Shown: positions 52,532-60,145 of the stretch, piece by piece
Position numbering within the stretch: position 1 is the first letter of the stretch
Layout of the letters: every line of letters begins with the position of its first letter
NCBI GenBank assembly: GCA_947467435.1
Contig: CANIIA010000006.1
Span: forward strand, 1-60,145
DNA: 60,145 bases
DNA from: Betaproteobacteria bacterium
Lineage (GTDB): Bacteria > Pseudomonadota > Gammaproteobacteria > Burkholderiales > SG8-39
Direction: 5' to 3'
Notes under the pieces: model-generated
Seen by the model: only the letters and a program-made list of their open reading frames with translations
Told to the model about the DNA's origin: nothing
The model's database searches: none
Made by a program: the position numbers and the translations under genes

Positions 52532-53512
52532 ATGGGCAATCAGATTCGCGCGAATAGGCGCTTGCAACAATACTTAGTTGCTTTGGTGGTTGGCATCTTT
52601 AGCGTACTCACGCACGCACAATATCCCAACAAACCCATCAAGCTGATCGTTCCTTTTCCGGCCGGGGGTTCTGCAGACACCTCTGCACGCATTGTTGCGC
52701 AATCGATGTCTAACAGCATGGGGCAACCCATCATCGTAGAAAACCGCTCTGGCGCTGAAGGAGCCATCGCTGGTGAGTTTGTGACCAAAGCACCCGCAGA
52801 TGGATACACGCTATTTTTTGCGACCAACAGCGCCATGTCAGCAGTGCCGCACTTACGCAAAAACGTTCCTTACGATCCGATGCGTGATTTCACGCCGATT
52901 GTGTCGGTGGGTCGATTTACGTTTTTCTTATTCGTCCACAGCACCGTACCTGTCAACAATGTGCAACAACTGATCGACTATGCGCGCACTAATCCGGGAA
53001 AACTCGATTACGGCACGGGCAACACCACGAGTATTGTGGCAACAGCGGCGTTTAAAGCACTCACCAAAACCGAGATGGTGCACATCCCGTACAAAGGTGA
53101 TGCACCCGCGCTAGCGGATTTAGCAGCTGGTCGCGTGAAGATGATGTTTGCAACCCCCACAAGTATTTTGGGTCACGTCAAAGAAGGACGCGTCAAAGTG
53201 CTGGCTGTATTGCTCAATCAACGCAGCCCGTTGTTACCAGAAACGCCCACACTCGCCGAAGCCGGACTGCCTGGATTTAACATGGCGTCGTGGGGCGGAT
53301 TGTTTGGACCTCCTGGCATGCCACGCGAAATAGTCGATCGTATTGCACGTGAATCGAATGCAGCAATCAAACGTGCCGATGTGATCGACGGACTCGGACG
53401 TCAAGCCTACGTACCGCAGGGTTCAACCACTGAAGAATTTGCCGCGTTTGTAAAGCAGCAATACGGCATTTGGGGCCAAGCAATCCGTGATGCAGGGATA
53501 CAGCCGGAATAG
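52532..53512 (+). CDS. Bug/TctC tripartite tricarboxylate transporter solute-binding protein
   Basis: YPNKPIKLIVPFPAGG, ENRSGA, PADGYTL, HIPYKG, PTLAEAG. Confidence 0.93.
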   Translation: MGNQIRANRRLQQYLVALVVGIFSVLTHAQYPNKPIKLIVPFPAGGSADTSARIVAQSMSNSMGQPIIVENRSGAEGAIAGEFVTKAPADGYTLFFATNSAMSAVPHLRKNVPYDPMRDFTPIVSVGRFTFFLFVHSTVPVNNVQQLIDYARTNPGKLDYGTGNTTSIVATAAFKALTKTEMVHIPYKGDAPALADLAAGRVKMMFATPTSILGHVKEGRVKVLAVLLNQRSPLLPETPTLAEAGLPGFNMASWGGLFGPPGMPREIVDRIARESNAAIKRADVIDGLGRQAYVPQGSTTEEFAAFVKQQYGIWGQAIRDAGIQPE

Positions 53513-53752
53513 GGTATTTCTAGCCCCATCGCTTCAAATTTAGCCAGTTGGCTTTGTTTTTTTGGGGTTCGGGTAAACGTACTCGTCACCCCTAGACCTC
53601 ATACACTTTGCCCATGCGTCACGGAGCCGTTCTCCTGCAGGGTAATCGTCTTTCTCTTCAGGTCGCCGCGCCGCTTTGATTTGACTATCCGGAAACCCAA
53701 CGGCTTAGGGCTTCAGCCCCTGCAAACGGGATATCCGAATTGTGATGACTAA

Positions 53753-53947
53753 CTATTTTTGTTCAATAGGCCGCCCGCGCGAATCAACAGGCTGTCCGCG
53801 GGAGTTTTCGTAGCGGCCATTACGGTAGCTAATTTGCCCACCATCGTCCGGATGAGAGGCAGTTTCTCCGTAAAAAGAACAACCGACCAAAACCGTCTGA
53901 ACCGTAAAAATCATAACGACATTGAAAATATTTTTTAGCATATTCAT
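53753..53947 (-). CDS. 64-aa lipoprotein carrying a copy of the toxin C-terminal peptide
   Basis: Signal peptide with LVGC lipobox; 17 of 21 residues identical to the CdiA C-terminus; 21 bp downstream of the immunity candidate. Confidence 0.7.
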   Translation of the reverse strand: MNMLKNIFNVVMIFTVQTVLVGCSFYGETASHPDDGGQISYRNGRYENSRGQPVDSRGRPIEQK

Positions 53948-53968
53948 TCCAAGAAAATATTCATCAGT

Positions 53969-54949
53969 TTATTTAGCTACAGCTGGCTCAAGATTCAAGT
54001 ATGTATCGCAATAAGAATATGCTTTGTGGCGCTTCCCGTTTTGGGTTACTTCAATGCATTTCTGGCGTATGCGTTCAATGACGACCAGCCGCATGTTTTC
54101 TTGCTTACGTTCGTCCTCTTCTGTCCATGGTGCTATCTCTATTTTTTCAACCAAACGCCTGAACGCTCTCTCTATCGCAGCGAACGCCTCGGGGTGTTTG
54201 ATTGTTTCTTGGGTTGCACCTAGTACAAGTTGTAATACATAACCACTGTCGAGAATGTTGGTGTAGTAATACTTGTAACCGGTGGAGACGAAGTTAGGTG
54301 TCGGGATTTGTAGCTCGCGCTCGTGGATAATCCACGCGTTCTGACCGATAACTTCACCCCTTTGTGTAATGTTTAATTCAGCAAGCTTTGCAGCATCAAA
54401 CTCTTTTGACAACATGAACGGCTGGCGATCGTAAAAATTGAGTGATACAGATGCGCGTATACCCTTCCAAGCTGTAACACACATCGGCTTATACCCCACC
54501 TCGACAATTTCTTCTCTGATTATGTTGTCTGTATCAAGCGCACCGTTGGGCTTCCTCCCGTAGATTGGTCTGGTTTCTTTGATGCTTTTAAAGAACTGAT
54601 CAACCTTGTCGTACTTCGTTAGCTTTTCTTCTTTTAGAAAACGCTCGCTATACAAAGAACCATCAACCTCGATGATCGGCCGAAAATAGGTGGGTTTTAC
54701 CCCTGCAGCTTCCGGAAAATTTATATCTGACTCTAGCTCGCAACCATAAGGTAGCCATTGATGCGTAATTCGATACTTTCCAAGCAGCTTGATCGAACGC
54801 GTCATATACACGACACCTCGTTCATCAGGTATTGCAGGATCTGTAGCCCCTGGGCGTAGATATCGATCATCCAGGTTTTTGAAAAACTGCGGCGCACAAG
54901 CTGATGTGAGCACTCCCAGCAATCCAACTATCCATATTTTTTTCTTCAT
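53969..54949 (-). CDS. Putative CdiI-like immunity lipoprotein
   Basis: MKKKIWIVGLLGVLTSAC lipoprotein signal; ATGA overlap with toxin stop; AT-richer than the toxin repeats. Confidence 0.7.
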   Translation of the reverse strand: MKKKIWIVGLLGVLTSACAPQFFKNLDDRYLRPGATDPAIPDERGVVYMTRSIKLLGKYRITHQWLPYGCELESDINFPEAAGVKPTYFRPIIEVDGSLYSERFLKEEKLTKYDKVDQFFKSIKETRPIYGRKPNGALDTDNIIREEIVEVGYKPMCVTAWKGIRASVSLNFYDRQPFMLSKEFDAAKLAELNITQRGEVIGQNAWIIHERELQIPTPNFVSTGYKYYYTNILDSGYVLQLVLGATQETIKHPEAFAAIERAFRRLVEKIEIAPWTEEDERKQENMRLVVIERIRQKCIEVTQNGKRHKAYSYCDTYLNLEPAVAK

Positions 54950-57900
54950 TGTTGGGGGTCTAACAGGCGACCGCGCGAGTCAACCGGTTGCTGCTTCGCG
55001 TTCTCATAGCGACCATTTCGGTAATAGATCAATGTGCTGTTGTCTTGCACCGCACCCTCTGGCGCATTTGGTGAGAGCACCTGCACTTGTCGACACCCAG
55101 TCTGGCCGGTTCCATAGCAGCTGTGCATGCTGTTGATGGTGCTCAGTACGTTCCAAAAGTCTTTTAACGTTAAGACCCCCGGATTTCCGCCAATACCCAC
55201 AGACACAGGGTCATTCGCAAAGTAACTAAATTGGCTATTTTTCTCAAAGAGCACCTGATCTTTAATTACCCGTTCGGCTGCGTCAGTAAATTCTTTTCCG
55301 CCCACTGGGATGCCATCAGCCTTAGCAATTAAATTAGGATTGCTAAGGCCTTGGTTGGAAAGGATGTTGTATGCATTCATACCAACCGGCCCGCCTCGAC
55401 TATGAAGCTGGCTAACGGTGGCTGCATCACCTCTGGCAGCAAGTGCCTCTGCATACGCCTTATCTTGATTGGTATACCCCAAGGTTTTTGCCAAGGATGT
55501 TTCATATGCACCAACCATGAGTTCACTTATAAAGTTACTTGCAGGTTCGTAGTGCATTAAATAAATGGTTGTTGGTTTGTTTTCCTTTGACAAAGGTTTT
55601 CCATTTTGAGCTGTGCTATCAACTTGCTCAATTACGGCATTTTGCATGGCTAACTGTGCTGCACGTTCTAGCGGATTGAAAATTCCATTCACCGCGAGCA
55701 CTGCACCTGCCTCTGCTTGTGCAATCTGATTTCGAATTTCTTCAGGTGTTCCGGTCATCAGCACCGGTTTTCCCAGCTCAGGATTCTTTGTGCAATCTTC
55801 CCCCGGAGGGCACTGCACTTTGTAAAACTTGGGGTTTTCTTTGAACATCACGCGAAACGCTTCATCAGTCAGCGTTGTAATTGCTTGAACCGCTTGATTG
55901 GTAATCGCCCGATCGGCCTCTACTTGGCGTTTCAGGGCTTCTGCGTCTTGGCGTTGCACGGCAACTTGTGCTGCATTGGCATCTGTATTGATGCCGGCAA
56001 CCGTTTGGGCGCCGGTTTTGCCGGTCCGTTGTTGCTGACTCGCTTCATCGGTAATTGTCACGCTCGCTTGGCTGATGGTCGCCAAGGTATGTCCCGTTGC
56101 ATTACTCGATTCGCTTGCGTTATTGAGTGCGTTTCCAATGATTGCTTTTGCCGCGCTGTAATTTCCTGGATCAGTCAACAGCGATGCGTTTAATGTAATT
56201 CCACTACTGGTTGCCGAAGCACGCGCACTGTTCTGTAAATCAGAAGCGGTTAACGTTCCTGTGGTTAGGCTATTCTTCCCTTCGTCCACCGCACGGTCGC
56301 TACTGGTGATTGCGCCACCGGCTAAGCCGGTGTTGCCTTTGACGTTGACCGCAAACCCAGCATCCCCCGCGCGCAGTGCGGTTTGCTCAACCACGGATTG
56401 GTAATTACTGTCGACATTGGTGCGGCCCATGCTCAAGCTACCGCCCACGGGGCTTCCGGGGCCGGCATTTAAGCTCACCGACGCGCCCGCTGTGCGCGAT
56501 GTTTCGCGGCTGGTGCTCGTTTCTTGCAAGCTTTCAATTTGTAAGTTGCCGCCTACGTTGACCTCGACGCGCTGGGCGCCTGCCACCGCACCACGTAACT
56601 GCGTGTCGCCCCCCGAAGTCATTTGCAAGGTGTTGCCGGCTTCTAAATTGGTATTGGTGTAGGTCACGTCATTGGCTGTGCCGGCAGTGGTGCCTTTGCT
56701 TTGGCTCAACGTGATCGATGCCGCAGGTTTAGTAAATGTGCTCACGCTCACTCCAAGGCTGCTGCTTGAAGAACTGCCCTTGGATGTTTGATCGCTGGTG
56801 TTTTGTGCGGCGAGGAGTTGAACGGCGTTGTCTGCCTGCAACTTGATGGTGTTGCCGGCATTAACGGTGCTGCCTTGAATGGTGACGTTGCTCTCTGCGC
56901 CCGCGCCAGCGGCACGAATGCTGACGTTTTCTCCGGCGTTCACCGAAGAGCCAACCGCACGATCGATGGTTTGTACGCTTTGATTGTCGCTACGCGAGCT
57001 ACCCACACTGACGCTTAAACTCACGCCCCCCATTTGCTCCGGATTTTTTACGACTTGCTCTGCTGCCGTTGCCACAGCGATTCCGCTCGCGGCAAGCGCC
57101 AGTGCTTTCATGCGATCACTTTTTGTGTGGTCGGCCGCACTCGACATTTGACTCACGGTTTGCGCAGCGGTGAGCACCGCATTATTTGCACCAATGGTGA
57201 GTCCGCTTTGCGATGTATACGAATCGGTTTGCGTGCGCATGGTTTCGCGTGCTTCTAGAATTTGAACTGACTGCCCAGAAAACGCGACGTTACCTTGCGG
57301 AGCGATGACTTGGCTGCCTATTTGACGAAGTTTTTCACCTGCGGTGATCGTGACGTCGCCCTCAAGGCTGCCGATCACGCTACCAGTAGCGCGCTGTCCA
57401 GTGGCTTGAGTATTGGTACCGCTTTGTTGCGTACCGATGGTGATGTTGACGCCTCCGGAATGCAGGAGGCCGGATTTTTTTTCATCTCGTTGGTGGCTCT
57501 CACTGAAGTTGGTGGTCGCAGCTGTCACGTTGACATCCCGTGCCGCTGTGATGGCGGTTCCTGCGCTGCTCACCACTTGGCTGCCGGTGATCTGTACGTC
57601 CCGACCGGCGCTGATATTGACCCGATCACCCGACACACTGCTGGCAATCGCATTTTCTTGCGACTGCGTGTTGCGCGCGACCACTTCTTTGCTCGACCAC
57701 CAGCTACCCGAACTCACGCTGCGCGATGCGTGATCCAAACTTGTTTCCGAAACGCCCGACACCAAATTCACATCGCGACCCGCCGACAAGTTAACCGCGC
57801 CTTGTGCACTTGTAATCTCGGCGGCACGCGCATTGAGGTCGACACCCGCGCTTAGTTGTAGCGCACCAGTGGTTTGAATGCGACTACCGGTTTCGGTGCT

Positions 57901-60145
57901 GTTGGCGTCTCGTTTGTAGTTTTGTTCATTCCAGACGACGGCTTGTTGTTCGCCTGTTTTTACTGTGCCCAAATTGATTTGTTGGCCCGCAGCGATAGCC
58001 GTGGTACCAGGTCCCTGATTAGCGACCTCGGCAGCGGTGAGATTGGCATTACGGCCAGCATATGCAATGAGCGTGCCCGTGCCACCGCTCACATACAAGC
58101 CGGCGACACGATCGAGATTGGTGCGGCTGCCTTGGCTCGAGGTTTGCGTGTTGGTCGTGGTGGTCACATTTAGATCACGACCCGCACTCAGCGCCAATTG
58201 ATTGGTGGCTCCAATCGTGCCACCCACATTATTGATGTCGTTTCGTGCAGTGACTCCAACATCAGCGCCAGTGATACGACCACCAAGGTTTTGAATATTT
58301 TCAGCGGTCAATGCAACTACATTCCGGCCTGCGATGGTGCCTTGGTTAGTGAGATCGCCGCTCAAGTTAAGGCGTACGGAATCACCCGAAATTAACGCGC
58401 CATTATTTTGTAAATCACCCGCACGCACCATGACATAGAGTTGCGGCACCAAGGCTTTGGTGGTGCTGCCATTAGCCAGCGTGATGTCTTTTTCAACGAG
58501 CCAAACAATATCACTCGTCAGTTGCGCCATTTGCGCCGCACTTAAAGAAACGCCCGGGATAAGGTTGTTTTTTTGCGCAAAGCTCACGCCGTTATTCATG
58601 AGCGCCGCATATTGCACCTCATCGTCGGCATAGCCGTTGAGAAACCGTCTACCCGTCAGTGCGGCGATTTGATCGCGCACGAGCTTTTGTTCATAAAAGC
58701 CATCGCCTATACGTTTTTGTGTTGCTGCCGAGTTAAACGAAAGGGCATTCAGTAGATAGTCAGAGGAAAGCCAGTTGCGGTAGTTGGCAAATGCCGGATC
58801 CGTTTCAACGATATAGGGCTTAGTGGGATTGGGGTTTTGATGAAATAAACCGCTGTCTGGAATGACGATCTTGCCAAAATCAACGCTGCCGACATTACCG
58901 CCGGTGTCTTTAGTTGAGATGACTTGAATCTTTGTGCCCGTGCCTTGTGGGCGGGTGTTTTGTTGGTAACTCAACGCCCCCAACGAAATAGTCTCCTCAA
59001 CAGGCGCTGGTTGATAGTAGGATGACTGGATTTCTGTATAGTCGTTATCTCTTCCTGGAGGTTGATGAGCGATGTAGTGATAAAGCGTCCCGTTATCAAG
59101 CGTGATGCGCTGACCGGTACCAGCGTTGTTGATCAGGCTGCCAATTTCCCCTGTAATTGCGCCCCCCGCAATGATTTTGCTTTTATCGTTGTTTAGCGTG
59201 TCAGCCGTAATACGCATCCCACCACCAGATTGGATGGCGGCTGGATCTGTTGTATCAATCTGTGTTTCAGTGATTTTTCTGTTGTAGTCATAGCGAAAGC
59301 TATTTTCGTAGGCCGACCCGTGAATCACCCATTGATAATAGCTGTCACGTTCGATCTTAGTGTACGCGTCGGGAAACCGCTGGCTTGCGCCTTCGCCCTG
59401 AAATTCCTGGATCCATTGGTCATAAATCAGCACCGTTTTGGTTTTAAAGTGCTCATTGGTGTTATTGATCACCTTGGCGCTGAGTTCAAGATCGCCTAAC
59501 GCTTCGATGGTGGCGCTCGCGTTATTGAGCTGCTTTGCCTGTCCCATGGCGCGATAGTTTGAATCGAGCGCGCCACCGAGGCTCATCGACCCACCGCTAA
59601 ACAGCAAGGCATGTTCGCGGTTATCGATCGTCTCCGCGCCGATGTCTAAGCGATCACGGGCGCCAATCACTGGCGCCAATCCATTTTCTGGTGCATTCAC
59701 CACGGCCTTTGCACTCAGGGCGACGTGGTTGCCGTAAATACGACCGGTCCCTAAGTTATCGATACCCTGTGCTTTGATGAACGTATCGGTGGCATCAAAT
59801 AAACCGCGGTTGATGACACGCGCGGTGCTGTCAAATAACAAGCGTTGATTGGCCTCAATTGCACTCCCGCTGCTTTGTACAAAATCTTTGGTCAAATAAA
59901 TATCGATATCGCCTGGGCTGGTGATGTGGCCGTCACCGGTCAAGCTTGCGCCCTGCAACACAACCGATCGATCCGCGCGCACTAGGCCTGTTGTGTTGGT
60001 TATTTTTTCACTGCTATTGAGGGAGACCTTCTCATCGGCGCTGACCAATCCGCGCGTGTTATCGATCAACCGTGCGTTTAATTGGACATTTTTCGCTGCA
60101 ATCCCCAGTGTGTCGGCATGGGTGTCGGCGTTTATGATTTGATCA
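54946..60145 (-). CDS. CdiA/filamentous haemagglutinin-type TpsA toxin, 3' part (5' beyond window), lipase-like C-terminal domain
   Basis: FHA-1 repeats, YP domain (ETDPAFANY...LSSDY, RIGDGFYEQKL), FHA-2 repeats (AGRD), CT with LHSRGG/NDPV/HSCY; frame open to window end. Confidence 0.9.
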   Translation of the reverse strand, partial: DQIINADTHADTLGIAAKNVQLNARLIDNTRGLVSADEKVSLNSSEKITNTTGLVRADRSVVLQGASLTGDGHITSPGDIDIYLTKDFVQSSGSAIEANQRLLFDSTARVINRGLFDATDTFIKAQGIDNLGTGRIYGNHVALSAKAVVNAPENGLAPVIGARDRLDIGAETIDNREHALLFSGGSMSLGGALDSNYRAMGQAKQLNNASATIEALGDLELSAKVINNTNEHFKTKTVLIYDQWIQEFQGEGASQRFPDAYTKIERDSYYQWVIHGSAYENSFRYDYNRKITETQIDTTDPAAIQSGGGMRITADTLNNDKSKIIAGGAITGEIGSLINNAGTGQRITLDNGTLYHYIAHQPPGRDNDYTEIQSSYYQPAPVEETISLGALSYQQNTRPQGTGTKIQVISTKDTGGNVGSVDFGKIVIPDSGLFHQNPNPTKPYIVETDPAFANYRNWLSSDYLLNALSFNSAATQKRIGDGFYEQKLVRDQIAALTGRRFLNGYADDEVQYAALMNNGVSFAQKNNLIPGVSLSAAQMAQLTSDIVWLVEKDITLANGSTTKALVPQLYVMVRAGDLQNNGALISGDSVRLNLSGDLTNQGTIAGRNVVALTAENIQNLGGRITGADVGVTARNDINNVGGTIGATNQLALSAGRDLNVTTTTNTQTSSQGSRTNLDRVAGLYVSGGTGTLIAYAGRNANLTAAEVANQGPGTTAIAAGQQINLGTVKTGEQQAVVWNEQNYKRDANSTETGSRIQTTGALQLSAGVDLNARAAEITSAQGAVNLSAGRDVNLVSGVSETSLDHASRSVSSGSWWSSKEVVARNTQSQENAIASSVSGDRVNISAGRDVQITGSQVVSSAGTAITAARDVNVTAATTNFSESHQRDEKKSGLLHSGGVNITIGTQQSGTNTQATGQRATGSVIGSLEGDVTITAGEKLRQIGSQVIAPQGNVAFSGQSVQILEARETMRTQTDSYTSQSGLTIGANNAVLTAAQTVSQMSSAADHTKSDRMKALALAASGIAVATAAEQVVKNPEQMGGVSLSVSVGSSRSDNQSVQTIDRAVGSSVNAGENVSIRAAGAGAESNVTIQGSTVNAGNTIKLQADNAVQLLAAQNTSDQTSKGSSSSSSLGVSVSTFTKPAASITLSQSKGTTAGTANDVTYTNTNLEAGNTLQMTSGGDTQLRGAVAGAQRVEVNVGGNLQIESLQETSTSRETSRTAGASVSLNAGPGSPVGGSLSMGRTNVDSNYQSVVEQTALRAGDAGFAVNVKGNTGLAGGAITSSDRAVDEGKNSLTTGTLTASDLQNSARASATSSGITLNASLLTDPGNYSAAKAIIGNALNNASESSNATGHTLATISQASVTITDEASQQQRTGKTGAQTVAGINTDANAAQVAVQRQDAEALKRQVEADRAITNQAVQAITTLTDEAFRVMFKENPKFYKVQCPPGEDCTKNPELGKPVLMTGTPEEIRNQIAQAEAGAVLAVNGIFNPLERAAQLAMQNAVIEQVDSTAQNGKPLSKENKPTTIYLMHYEPASNFISELMVGAYETSLAKTLGYTNQDKAYAEALAARGDAATVSQLHSRGGPVGMNAYNILSNQGLSNPNLIAKADGIPVGGKEFTDAAERVIKDQVLFEKNSQFSYFANDPVSVGIGGNPGVLTLKDFWNVLSTINSMHSCYGTGQTGCRQVQVLSPNAPEGAVQDNSTLIYYRNGRYENAKQQPVDSRGRLLDPQQ

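Follow-up and report, generated by a model that had tools for sequence, protein, structure and literature searches.

A predicted small lipoprotein gene built from the 3' end of a cdiA-type toxin gene is retained under purifying selection in a sister species lacking the toxin module

CDI loci are usually read as toxin, immunity and transporter genes accompanied by decaying orphan fragments. The locus described here raises the question of what to make of a further small open reading frame (ORF), the second gene downstream of the toxin gene, which encodes a putative lipoprotein ending in a close copy of the toxin's own C-terminal tail. The window, i.e. the whole stretch of DNA analyzed, comprises 60,145 nucleotides of contig CANIIA010000006.1 from a Betaproteobacteria bacterium (GCA_947467435.1). 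The features of the locus are as follows.

54946..60144, (-) strand: CdiA/TpsA-type exoprotein, C-terminal 1732 aa, open at the contig end, with Fil_haemagg_2 repeats
54949..55848, (-) strand: toxin domain, predicted lipase-like alpha/beta hydrolase, residues 100-399 of P0003
54949..55032, (-) strand: toxin C-terminal tail, predicted beta-hairpin, residues 372-399, including the motif of an earlier note on this DNA at 54967-55029
53969..54949, (-) strand: cdiI-like immunity gene, 326-aa lipoprotein with a predicted PsbP/Mog1-like fold, lipobox LTSAC
53753..53947, (-) strand: small lipoprotein gene of 64 aa (start at 53947) or 62 aa (start at the ATG at 53941)
53879..53947, (-) strand: signal peptide and lipobox LVGC, Cys23 at 53879-53881, read from the sequence
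53756..53851, (-) strand: final 32 codons of the small gene, from PDDGGQ onward, containing the tail-like peptide, motif at 53771-53833

The exoprotein matched Fil_haemagg_2 with an E value of 8e-45, and a Pfam scan of its 1732 aa at E<=1 added only a weak OB-fold match. A full-length close homologue has 2192 aa, and the full-length homologue P0156, which is 93% identical over the last 133 aa with an identical tail, contains TPS and ESPR domains and haemagglutinin repeats. That scan listed no pretoxin model (VENN or (E/Q)LYN motif); a ..NN motif region upstream of the toxin is kept among relatives. In the same genome, a TpsB (ShlB/Omp85-type) gene at C31:19129-20073 matched PF03865 with 325 bits; after it comes a TPS domain whose frame is still open where contig C31 ends. 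Based upon P0156 and synteny with the sister genome G004, C31 would join the window across a contig break. Across this link a TpsB gene lies next to the exoprotein gene, as in CDI and two-partner secretion loci, and the haemagglutinin-repeat exoprotein has a variable C-terminal toxin followed directly by an immunity gene, giving the order cdiB-cdiA-cdiI-small. A second TPS system is located on contig C23. The start of the immunity gene overlaps the toxin stop (ATGA), and homologues of its product directly follow the toxin in 30 of 38 related loci. The immunity protein has one match in the genome and none within 240 bases downstream of the small gene.

The toxin domain matched 209 representative proteins at E<=1e-3, most of them at the C-terminus of proteins of 2000-4900 aa. 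Conserved motifs of the family include the HSRG elbow, whose first Gly is Leu here, and HSCYGTG..C; D312 aligns with a nearly invariant Asp and H341 with an invariant His, and a conserved Cys pair adjoins the presumed catalytic His. VIA-align was used for fold matches in place of Foldseek, which returned only weak alpha/beta-hydrolase rows from the PDB (best E 1.2e-3). The AF2 model of the toxin domain (pLDDT 85.5) gave VIA Z scores of 11.1 to the Obc1 C-domain and hornet phospholipase A1, 9.5-9.7 to cutinases, 9.2 to pancreatic lipase-related protein 2 and 6.9 to T6SS Tle3. Model and alignment together place an alpha/beta-hydrolase fold, a nucleophile elbow and Asp/His partners in the domain. 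The immunity model (pLDDT 83.1) reached middling Z scores of 8.9 to TplEi, a T6SS lipase immunity protein, and 8.2 to Tsi3. Apart from a sub-threshold PRTRC_E hit, the toxin domain, immunity protein and small protein matched no Pfam or NCBIfam family, the Fil_haemagg_2 repeats of the exoprotein being recognized. It is proposed that the toxin is a predicted periplasm-acting lipase-like hydrolase neutralised by the lipoprotein immunity protein; the periplasmic setting is suggested by the lipase-like fold and conserved Cys pair of the toxin and by the TplEi-like fold of a lipoprotein immunity protein.

In the model, the tail forms strands at residues 372-376 and 379-381 (pLDDT 94, 94 and 83 over this block), and lipase matches align up to residues 384-385. 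Furthermore, a related ending (LI.Y.GG, then often.VD..G.P) occurs in many toxin-family members. The tail hairpin is thus, as modelled, an integral and confidently placed end piece of the hydrolase. Since the hairpin belongs to the toxin, being found across its family and well placed in its model, the direction of homology runs from toxin to small gene, which derives from toxin DNA.

Codon-by-codon comparison of the small ORF (53771-53833) with the toxin (54967-55029) exactly reproduced the coordinates, sequences and counts of the earlier note: 17 of 21 residues are identical, 10 of these 17 with different codons. When the 21-codon span was shifted two codons downstream, starting from the Tyr of YRNG, 16 of 21 residues were identical at 67% nucleotide identity. 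The view that this is peptide-level conservation and not a fresh DNA duplication was borne out. The two peptides share an identical 8-mer and a second block identical at 8/8 positions. Searched in six frames with the small protein, the entire 2.68-Mb genome gave no match other than the protein itself and the toxin tail (E 6.2e-7, 60% over 30 aa). In local alignment, the mature small peptide scored 93 with its own toxin tail, whereas the highest score with any of 38 further tails from this family was 44. The likeness is far above chance.

These synonymous differences alone are no proof of selection on the small ORF, because they could predate orphaning, having arisen between two functional toxin alleles. 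A valid test is provided by comparison of the orthologues in G000 and G004, whose small proteins are 82% identical. Over the last 32 codons there were 7 synonymous and 0 non-synonymous differences (pS 0.316, pN 0), compared with a pN of 0.185 in the signal-peptide half and a pS of 0.155-0.222 in neighbouring genes. The probability of no change at the 74 non-synonymous sites of the tail part under neutrality was 4e-6 to 6e-13, and 0/32 residues changed in the tail part versus 9/31 in the adjacent cdiI remnant (Fisher p 0.0009). Third codon positions in the small frame coincide with first positions in ORF 53759..53938 on the opposite strand, so the latter is not the conserved frame. Among 18 distinct natural variants on ~45 contigs, the lipobox is invariant in 18/18 and the last 32 residues are identical in 17/18, with variation located in the linker and the signal peptide. 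Of the allele types, that of G004 is found more widely, with 13 variants on ~35 contigs. By these codon patterns, the small ORF evolves as a coding gene, and purifying selection on its peptide is shown. Such selection indicates some function but not which one, and a role outside CDI fits it equally well.

The N-terminus reads as a lipoprotein signal: its n-region contains a Lys and is followed by a hydrophobic stretch of 15 residues and by LVGC, confirming the signal peptide and lipobox noticed earlier. Residue +2 is Ser, which provides no Asp retention signal. The mature protein of ~41 residues would consist of a variable 10-residue linker followed by the copy of the toxin's last beta-hairpin. 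The ATG at 53941 is the likelier start, and the second ATG has a purine-rich GGAA a few bases ahead of it. The small protein would be translated, lipidated and located in the periplasm. It is encoded by the last gene of the locus, faced by a convergent Bug-family gene. No Rfam match was obtained in 53400-54100 and no sigma-70-like promoter was found in 53450-55100, where the one terminator-like site is on the opposite strand. The single 229-base contig from RNA-library run X20 covers the immunity gene, leaves the small gene uncovered and says nothing either way.

Of 18 genomes of the genus, 2 contain the small gene. Its locus also occurs in metagenomes from freshwater, rivers and estuaries, with contigs of X1-X3 and X20 placed on it. 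A search of 5.8 billion proteins returned, at lengths of 35-112 aa, only the small protein's own two clusters; the search was word-seeded and would miss weak similarity. No similar protein of 113-2000 aa was found, in a weak search whose range full-length CdiA exceeds. A metagenome scan with the small protein gave 5 loci, all spurious off-frame matches in other sequence. In a language-model search the nearest clusters were small lipoproteins (score 0.89), which serves as a lead only.

In the sister genome G004, cdiB, cdiA and ~90% of cdiI are cleanly deleted and the small gene is intact. At the junction, homology to C31:18297, just upstream of the open frame with the cdiB match, and homology to window position 54064, 31 codons before the cdiI stop, meet within ~5 bases. 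No other matches to the toxin or immunity protein were found in G004. By this genome comparison, the predicted gene was shown to be retained after deletion of cdiBAI and hence to be independent of the module. Since it was kept without the module, the suggestion that the peptide chaperones the immunity protein is disfavoured.

Recurrence was examined in 38 related loci, 36 of which have at least 1460 bases downstream (806 in L032 and 497 in L034); the final 32 aa of every toxin were compared by tblastn with the DNA that follows its gene. A tail copy was found in 0/38; scores reached at most 20.0 bits in L031 and 18.1 bits in L046, L062 and L065, compared with 41.6 bits in the window. The three-part toxin/immunity/mimic module of the earlier note therefore does not recur in these loci, even though 30 of them have the immunity gene, and the three-gene layout recurs only in what were judged to be very close relatives. 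Among the observations that the earlier note named as speaking against the module were absence of the small ORF from homologous loci, which is what was seen, and an orphan remnant with an unconserved lipobox, whereas the lipobox here is invariant. As far as these loci indicate, CDI systems do not generally include such a gene.

In 4/38 loci (L028, L033, L041 and L053), the gene after the immunity gene belongs to a second family of small lipoproteins, of 88-105 aa. This family was rejected both as a tail mimic, since cognate tails rank only 4th to 8th of 39, and as kin of the small protein, since 116-161 of 500 shuffles reach its similarity; its tail likeness is a generic D..G.P hairpin resemblance. 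A chimera of the immunity gene's 5' end and the toxin's 3' end was likewise not supported: with a profile of the immunity-family N-terminus, that of the small protein ranks 11th-14th of 529 searched (510 scored), which suggests no more than shared signal-peptide character.

The explanation we tentatively prefer, while giving it somewhat less than an even chance, is that the small ORF is a genuine lipoprotein gene, restricted to one lineage, that arose from the 3' end of the cdiA toxin gene and whose product is a periplasmic decoy, or protector resembling orphan immunity. Under the mechanism that we infer, the mature peptide would be lipid-anchored facing the periplasm, and the anchored hairpin copy would compete with the tail of incoming toxins of this family, either for the groove of the toxin core where the tail must dock during periplasmic refolding or for whatever else the tail binds. 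The lipoprotein would then act like an orphan immunity factor, useful even without toxin genes. Counting against a decoy, a competitor may have no access to a tail that forms an integral strand of the fold, and G004 lost the main immunity gene, so that the small protein alone would have to suffice for protection there. Furthermore, since the layout is absent from the 38 related loci, a defence of this kind would be a local invention. A co-fold of toxin 100-399, immunity 19-326 and small 24-64 gave ipSAE 0.01/0.02 and a mark of 0.32, in a three-chain job outside the calibration of the tool and without controls, and counts neither for nor against binding.

Co-option for a role outside CDI is rather doubtful but deserves serious weight. 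In that case a toxin fragment gained a lipoprotein signal, and the peptide would bind an envelope component in a housekeeping or niche function, consistent with the strong purifying selection, with the wider spread of the G004-type allele, which in G004 itself occurs without the toxin, and with the freshwater, river and estuary metagenomes. The peptide is, however, still close to the toxin tail at 17/21 positions, and were the functions unrelated this likeness would have no reason to persist beyond shared ancestry.

It is unlikely that the small protein is a BcpO-like accessory. As such, it would be an outer-membrane lipoprotein that assists the producer cell in the maturation, retention or release of CdiA, the C-terminal half of which is kept waiting in the periplasm, and by virtue of the shared tail it could use the docking site of the toxin end. 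Consistent with this are the position directly after the immunity gene, the size (62-64 aa vs 73-74 aa), the lipobox without Asp at +2, the variable signal peptide before a nearly invariant mature part, as in BcpO alleles 1-5, 7 and 8, and the lowered CDI and autoaggregation of B. thailandensis upon bcpO loss (PMC3415462). The helper of a deleted system should decay in G004 unless it serves the second TPS system on C23, yet the small gene is kept there under selection without cdiB and cdiA. The order cdiB-cdiA-cdiI-small, not bcpAIOB, and the word-seeded search (35-112 aa), which found nothing similar beyond the protein's own two clusters, also argue against it.

Equally unlikely in our estimate is a stand-alone, immunity-independent shield made from the last ~30 codons of the toxin gene, in which tethered hairpin copies would capture incoming toxin by replacing its own last strands during refolding; this would explain how the sister species keeps the small gene while losing cdiB, cdiA and cdiI.

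A non-functional orphan remnant of a displaced cdiA-CT, with an accidental frame and lipobox and with conservation due to recent ancestry or gene conversion, is disfavoured and considered quite improbable. Orphan cdiA fragments do occur in related loci, as long haemagglutinin-type ORFs after the immunity gene in L029 and L030. In addition, one river-metagenome contig (X3, record 18) passes from toxin codons (to 54971) into 16 letters identical to the 3' end of the small ORF, a join indicating that the two repeats, or alleles of them, recombine in nature. Against a remnant stand the absence of non-synonymous change over 32 codons at a pS of 0.316, the identity of the peptide in 17/18 variants while the signal peptide varies, the lack in G004 of a toxin copy to convert from, the flanking non-coding DNA, which is unalignable or ~80% identical, and the start codon and GGAA of the ORF. 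Chance resemblance of two short Arg/Gly/Asp-rich peptides, to which common D..G.P(I/V) hairpin motifs and the weakly tail-like second lipoprotein family (4/38 loci) might point, is scarcely credible and was rejected by the genome-wide E value (6.2e-7), the codon alignment with its identical 8-mer and 8/8 block, and the cognate versus non-cognate scores (93 vs <=44).

Whichever function applies, a toxin fragment of ~30 codons appears to have become a selected gene with a lipoprotein signal and to have outlived, in a sister species, the system of that toxin. It is a well-dated example of how toxin DNA can give rise to a gene. If protective, it would represent an immunity principle made from a piece of toxin, not a dedicated binding protein; if a helper of CdiA, its shared tail would offer a concrete handle on the still unexplained BcpO class. 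Should the gene act as a stand-alone shield, similar action by BcpO-type lipoproteins may merit a look. The reach is limited to one lineage (2/18 genomes of the genus) and 0/38 related toxin loci.

In T6SS pairs of a Tle lipase effector and its Tli immunity protein (e.g. TplE-TplEi and Tle3-Tli3), an alpha/beta-hydrolase toxin acting in the periplasm is matched by an immunity protein that is a lipoprotein located there. The present pair is alike in that the toxin model matches lipases and Tle3 and the immunity model matches TplEi (Z 8.9), but differs in its delivery by a TpsA/CdiA protein and shows no sequence-level family match; no tail-copy gene was found reported in the literature for the T6SS pairs. 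Among polymorphic toxins, the three Tox-ABhydrolase families (Zhang et al. 2012, PMC3482391) similarly place a lipase-like alpha/beta hydrolase at the C-terminus, a comparison made by description, the toxin domain here being without a Pfam or NCBIfam model match.

Like the small gene, the orphan cdiA-CT/cdiI modules that follow cdi loci (Poole et al. 2011, via review PMC9086364) consist of toxin-derived DNA lying beyond the active immunity gene, and displacement or partial duplication is the probable origin of both. As described there, an orphan cdiA-CT starts at the pretoxin motif, has no start codon and is followed by its own immunity gene, whereas the small gene has ~30 terminal codons behind a lipoprotein signal, ATG starts, purifying selection and no immunity gene after it, and so is not such a module. 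Its retention in G004 parallels orphan cdiI genes, protective genes kept after toxin loss (PMC9086364).

The closest known counterpart, by analogy, is BcpO (Anderson et al. 2012, PMC3415462). In the bcpAIOB loci of Burkholderia, the gene for this lipoprotein of 73-74 aa comes immediately behind the immunity gene; the earlier note overlooked it in saying that it knew of no such CDI component. A 2022 paper still called the function of BcpO unknown (PMC9487645). Both follow the immunity gene, have a lipobox and lack a Lol-avoidance Asp, and in both the signal peptide varies among alleles with a nearly identical mature part (PMC3415462). The two are likened by description, with no similarity detected in the 5.8-billion-protein search. 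BcpO lies between bcpI and bcpB, whereas the small gene is last and cdiB is upstream of cdiA; no report of likeness to the BcpA C-terminus was found in the available text of PMC3415462, whereas the small lipoprotein resembles the toxin tail and, unlike BcpO, persists after loss of the secretion genes.

Finally, a designed beta-hairpin mimic of CdiA-CT pairs with its CdiI (Morse et al. 2015, via PMC9086364). It shares with the small lipoprotein the use of a free toxin-hairpin copy as a competitor at a toxin interface, which is only proposed here. That mimic is synthetic and targets the beta-augmentation site of a nuclease toxin on its immunity protein. The small lipoprotein, in contrast, is natural and predicted to be lipid-anchored and, if protective, would be nature's equivalent of the hairpin mimics that were designed and tried against CdiI.

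The end of the window carries a lineage-specific lipoprotein gene that is derived from the terminal hairpin of the neighbouring CdiA-like toxin, is under selection at the peptide level, and has been kept in a relative that lost cdiB, cdiA and nearly all of cdiI. The features concerned are the following.

54946..60144, minus strand: toxin ORF, 1732 aa, open at the contig end; haemagglutinin repeats are its sole Pfam match
54949-55848, minus strand: toxin domain
53969..54949, minus strand: immunity gene, 326 aa, with signal peptide and lipobox; overlaps the toxin stop by ATGA
53753..53947, minus strand: small ORF, 64 aa, 21 bases beyond the immunity gene

The large minus-strand ORF terminates with the peptide quoted for the toxin in the earlier note. 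At the end of contig C31 of the same genome (G000) lie a TpsB gene and a TPS domain, the latter belonging to an exoprotein whose frame is still open where the contig stops. A close full-length toxin homologue (P0156, 2192 aa, identical tail) combines haemagglutinin domains with TPS and ESPR. The gene order is therefore cdiB-cdiA-cdiI-small gene, with a Bug-family gene in convergent orientation after it. The small protein begins with a Lys-containing n-region, a hydrophobic core and the lipobox LVGC, with Ser at +2. Between the small gene and the Bug-family gene, 240 bases (53513-53752) are without counterpart in the sister genome of the same genus (G004), where about 180 unrelated bases are found between conserved flanks; no Rfam match was obtained in this stretch. 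A second two-partner secretion locus is present in G000 on contig C23:19313-21249, with a TpsB gene and a TpsA in a 2076-aa open frame. The 90% cluster of P0156 also contains three FeoA-like fragments of 45-49 aa (P0174-P0176), which looks like a clustering artefact.

Codon-by-codon comparison reproduced exactly the reported likeness between the small ORF and the toxin tail, with 17 of 21 residues identical and different codons at 10 of the 17. When the entire genome was searched in six frames, the small protein matched itself and the toxin tail only (E 6.2e-7), and the peptide scored 93 against its own toxin tail versus at most 44 against 38 other tails of the toxin family; the similarity is beyond chance. 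The earlier note had taken the synonymous differences as a sign of peptide-level conservation. The counts stand, but they do not prove selection on the small ORF, as such differences could predate the orphaning, from a time when both sequences were functional toxin alleles. The case for selection is made by comparison of orthologs.

The small gene was detected in two of the 18 genomes of the genus (G000 and G004), and at 90% identity the small protein accounts for just two clusters in a set of 5.8 billion proteins; a metagenome scan with the protein added nothing real. Across the last 32 codons the two orthologs differ at seven synonymous and no non-synonymous positions (pS 0.316, pN 0), whereas the half encoding the signal peptide and linker has pS 0.305, pN 0.185 and an indel; pS in neighbouring genes is 0.155-0.222. 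The probability of no change at 74 non-synonymous sites under neutrality is 4e-6 to 6e-13. Furthermore, 9 of 31 residues have changed in the adjacent cdiI remnant of G004 compared with 0 of 32 in the small gene (Fisher p 0.0009). Among the cluster members, which come from about 45 contigs (roughly 35 with G004-type alleles and 10 with window-type alleles), 18 different natural variants can be told apart. The lipobox is invariant in all 18; 17 share every one of the last 32 residues, the exception being a single Arg-to-Gln change, and the remaining variation is confined to the signal peptide and 10-residue linker. Since third codon positions of the small-gene frame are first positions of the opposite-strand ORF, the latter is not the conserved element. 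We conclude from these patterns of substitution that the tail-like peptide is under strong purifying selection, and infer that the small ORF is likely translated.

G004 retains the small gene as well as the gene that lies upstream of cdiB and encodes a 295-aa protein (95% identical), while a clean deletion of ~9.5 kb has removed cdiB, cdiA and all of cdiI except its last ~31 codons. The G004 side of the junction (contig C31, locus L022:7414-7524) was compared with window positions 53948-54064; homology to contig C31 of G000 ends at C31:18297 and homology to the window begins at 54064, the blocks meeting within about 5 bases. Elsewhere in G004 (completeness 94%), neither the toxin nor the immunity protein had a match. 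INDEPENDENCE of the small gene from the toxin is indicated by its persistence there after loss of cdiBAI.

The last 399 residues of the toxin (P0003) have no Pfam or NCBIfam family. They match 209 representative proteins (E<=1e-3), most of the matches lying C-terminally in proteins of 2000-4900 aa, and share with them an HSRG nucleophile elbow, a conserved Asp and HSCYGTG..C. The AlphaFold model is an alpha/beta hydrolase (pLDDT 85.5), matched best by the Obc1 C-domain and hornet phospholipase A1 (Z 11.1 each), then by cutinases (Z 9.5-9.7) and pancreatic lipase-related protein 2 (Z 9.2), with T6SS Tle3 lower (6.9); Foldseek alone gave weak matches. A related tail, LI.Y.GG and then often.VD..G.P, ends many family members. 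The tail, residues 372-399, is modelled with strands at 372-376 and 379-381 (block pLDDT 94, 94, 83), and the lipase matches reach residues 384-385. The tail is thus an ancient part of the toxin and integral to the end of its fold. The small ORF copied the toxin tail and not the reverse.

Close toxin alleles have tails identical to that of the window and differ in an internal loop. Over the last 133 aa these alleles are 93% identical, and they differ in a block of ~10 residues right before a conserved SYF.NDP motif (window about 55228-55260, residues ~296-306 of P0003; loose end in the river metagenome run X3 at 55261). This block may be a hypervariable loop and perhaps determines immunity specificity. 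The immunity protein itself is modelled with a PsbP/Mog1-like fold (pLDDT 83.1), with middling matches that include the T6SS lipase immunity protein TplEi (Z 8.9) and also Tsi3 (Z 8.2). Two variants, P0180 and P0186, are one Lys shorter. In the river metatranscriptome X20, a 229-base contig with 8 differences covers window 54503-54731, which faintly suggests transcription of the immunity gene in a related strain.

Homologues of the immunity lipoprotein directly follow the toxin at 30 of 38 related genome loci. Judged solely from equal contig sizes, the three-gene layout proposed earlier recurs in very close relatives: the toxin and small-protein clusters are both represented on two contigs (348,200 and 9,383 bases), the larger of which also encodes the immunity protein. 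A downstream copy of the toxin's own tail was found at 0 of the 38 related loci (best 20.0 bits versus 41.6 in the window). Behind the immunity gene, many of the 38 carry lipoprotein genes of other kinds or orphan fragments of cdiA. At four, a separate family of small lipoproteins directly follows the immunity gene (88-105 aa, two conserved Cys, C-terminal motif SP.(Q/H/K)C(R/K); L028:7384-7701, L033:7133-7429, L041:2856-3122 and L053:1443-1712); this family is unrelated to the small protein of the window and has no specific likeness to its cognate tails. The long ORFs downstream of the immunity gene at L029:7021-8967 and L030:7054-8250, which contain haemagglutinin or pretoxin-like sequence, look like orphan cdiA fragments. 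At other loci this position is repeatedly taken by one of several further lipoprotein families (about 150-240 aa).

Run X3 contains the small ORF itself (2 differences in 185 bases) and a 185-base contig that tracks the toxin down to 54971 and continues with 16 letters identical to the 3' end of the small ORF. A second contig carries different sequence right upstream of the immunity start, with the start codon one codon later (window 54944-54971). From these unphased contigs at depth 3-5, either some toxin allele carries a small-ORF-type end or recombination takes place between the two repeats.

Our tentative reading is that the small lipoprotein, in the periplasm and probably on the outer membrane, would compete with the tail of an incoming toxin, either for the groove in which the tail docks as the hydrolase refolds or for some other partner, and so act like an orphan immunity factor. 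Toxin loss with the gene retained is described as typical of orphan cdiI genes in PMC9086364. A co-opted role unrelated to CDI is somewhat unlikely. It is unlikely that the gene encodes a helper of CdiA like BcpO, the lipoprotein of 73-74 aa from Burkholderia bcpAIOB loci: position, similar size, lipobox, and the variable signal with invariant mature part noted for BcpO in PMC3415462 all agree, but the small gene persists without cdiBA, as a secretion helper typically would not, and its locus has another gene order. A dead remnant is quite improbable, and chance resemblance extremely so. The evolutionary signal is clean and the competitor hypothesis testable, within a narrow phylogenetic reach. 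No case of a toxin's own C-terminal hairpin being copied, under selection, as the mature part of a lipoprotein was found in the literature on CdiA lipoproteins, immunity and phospholipase, BcpO, or orphan and displaced modules; what is already known are small accessory lipoproteins encoded after the immunity gene, as in BcpO, and toxin-derived orphan fragments.
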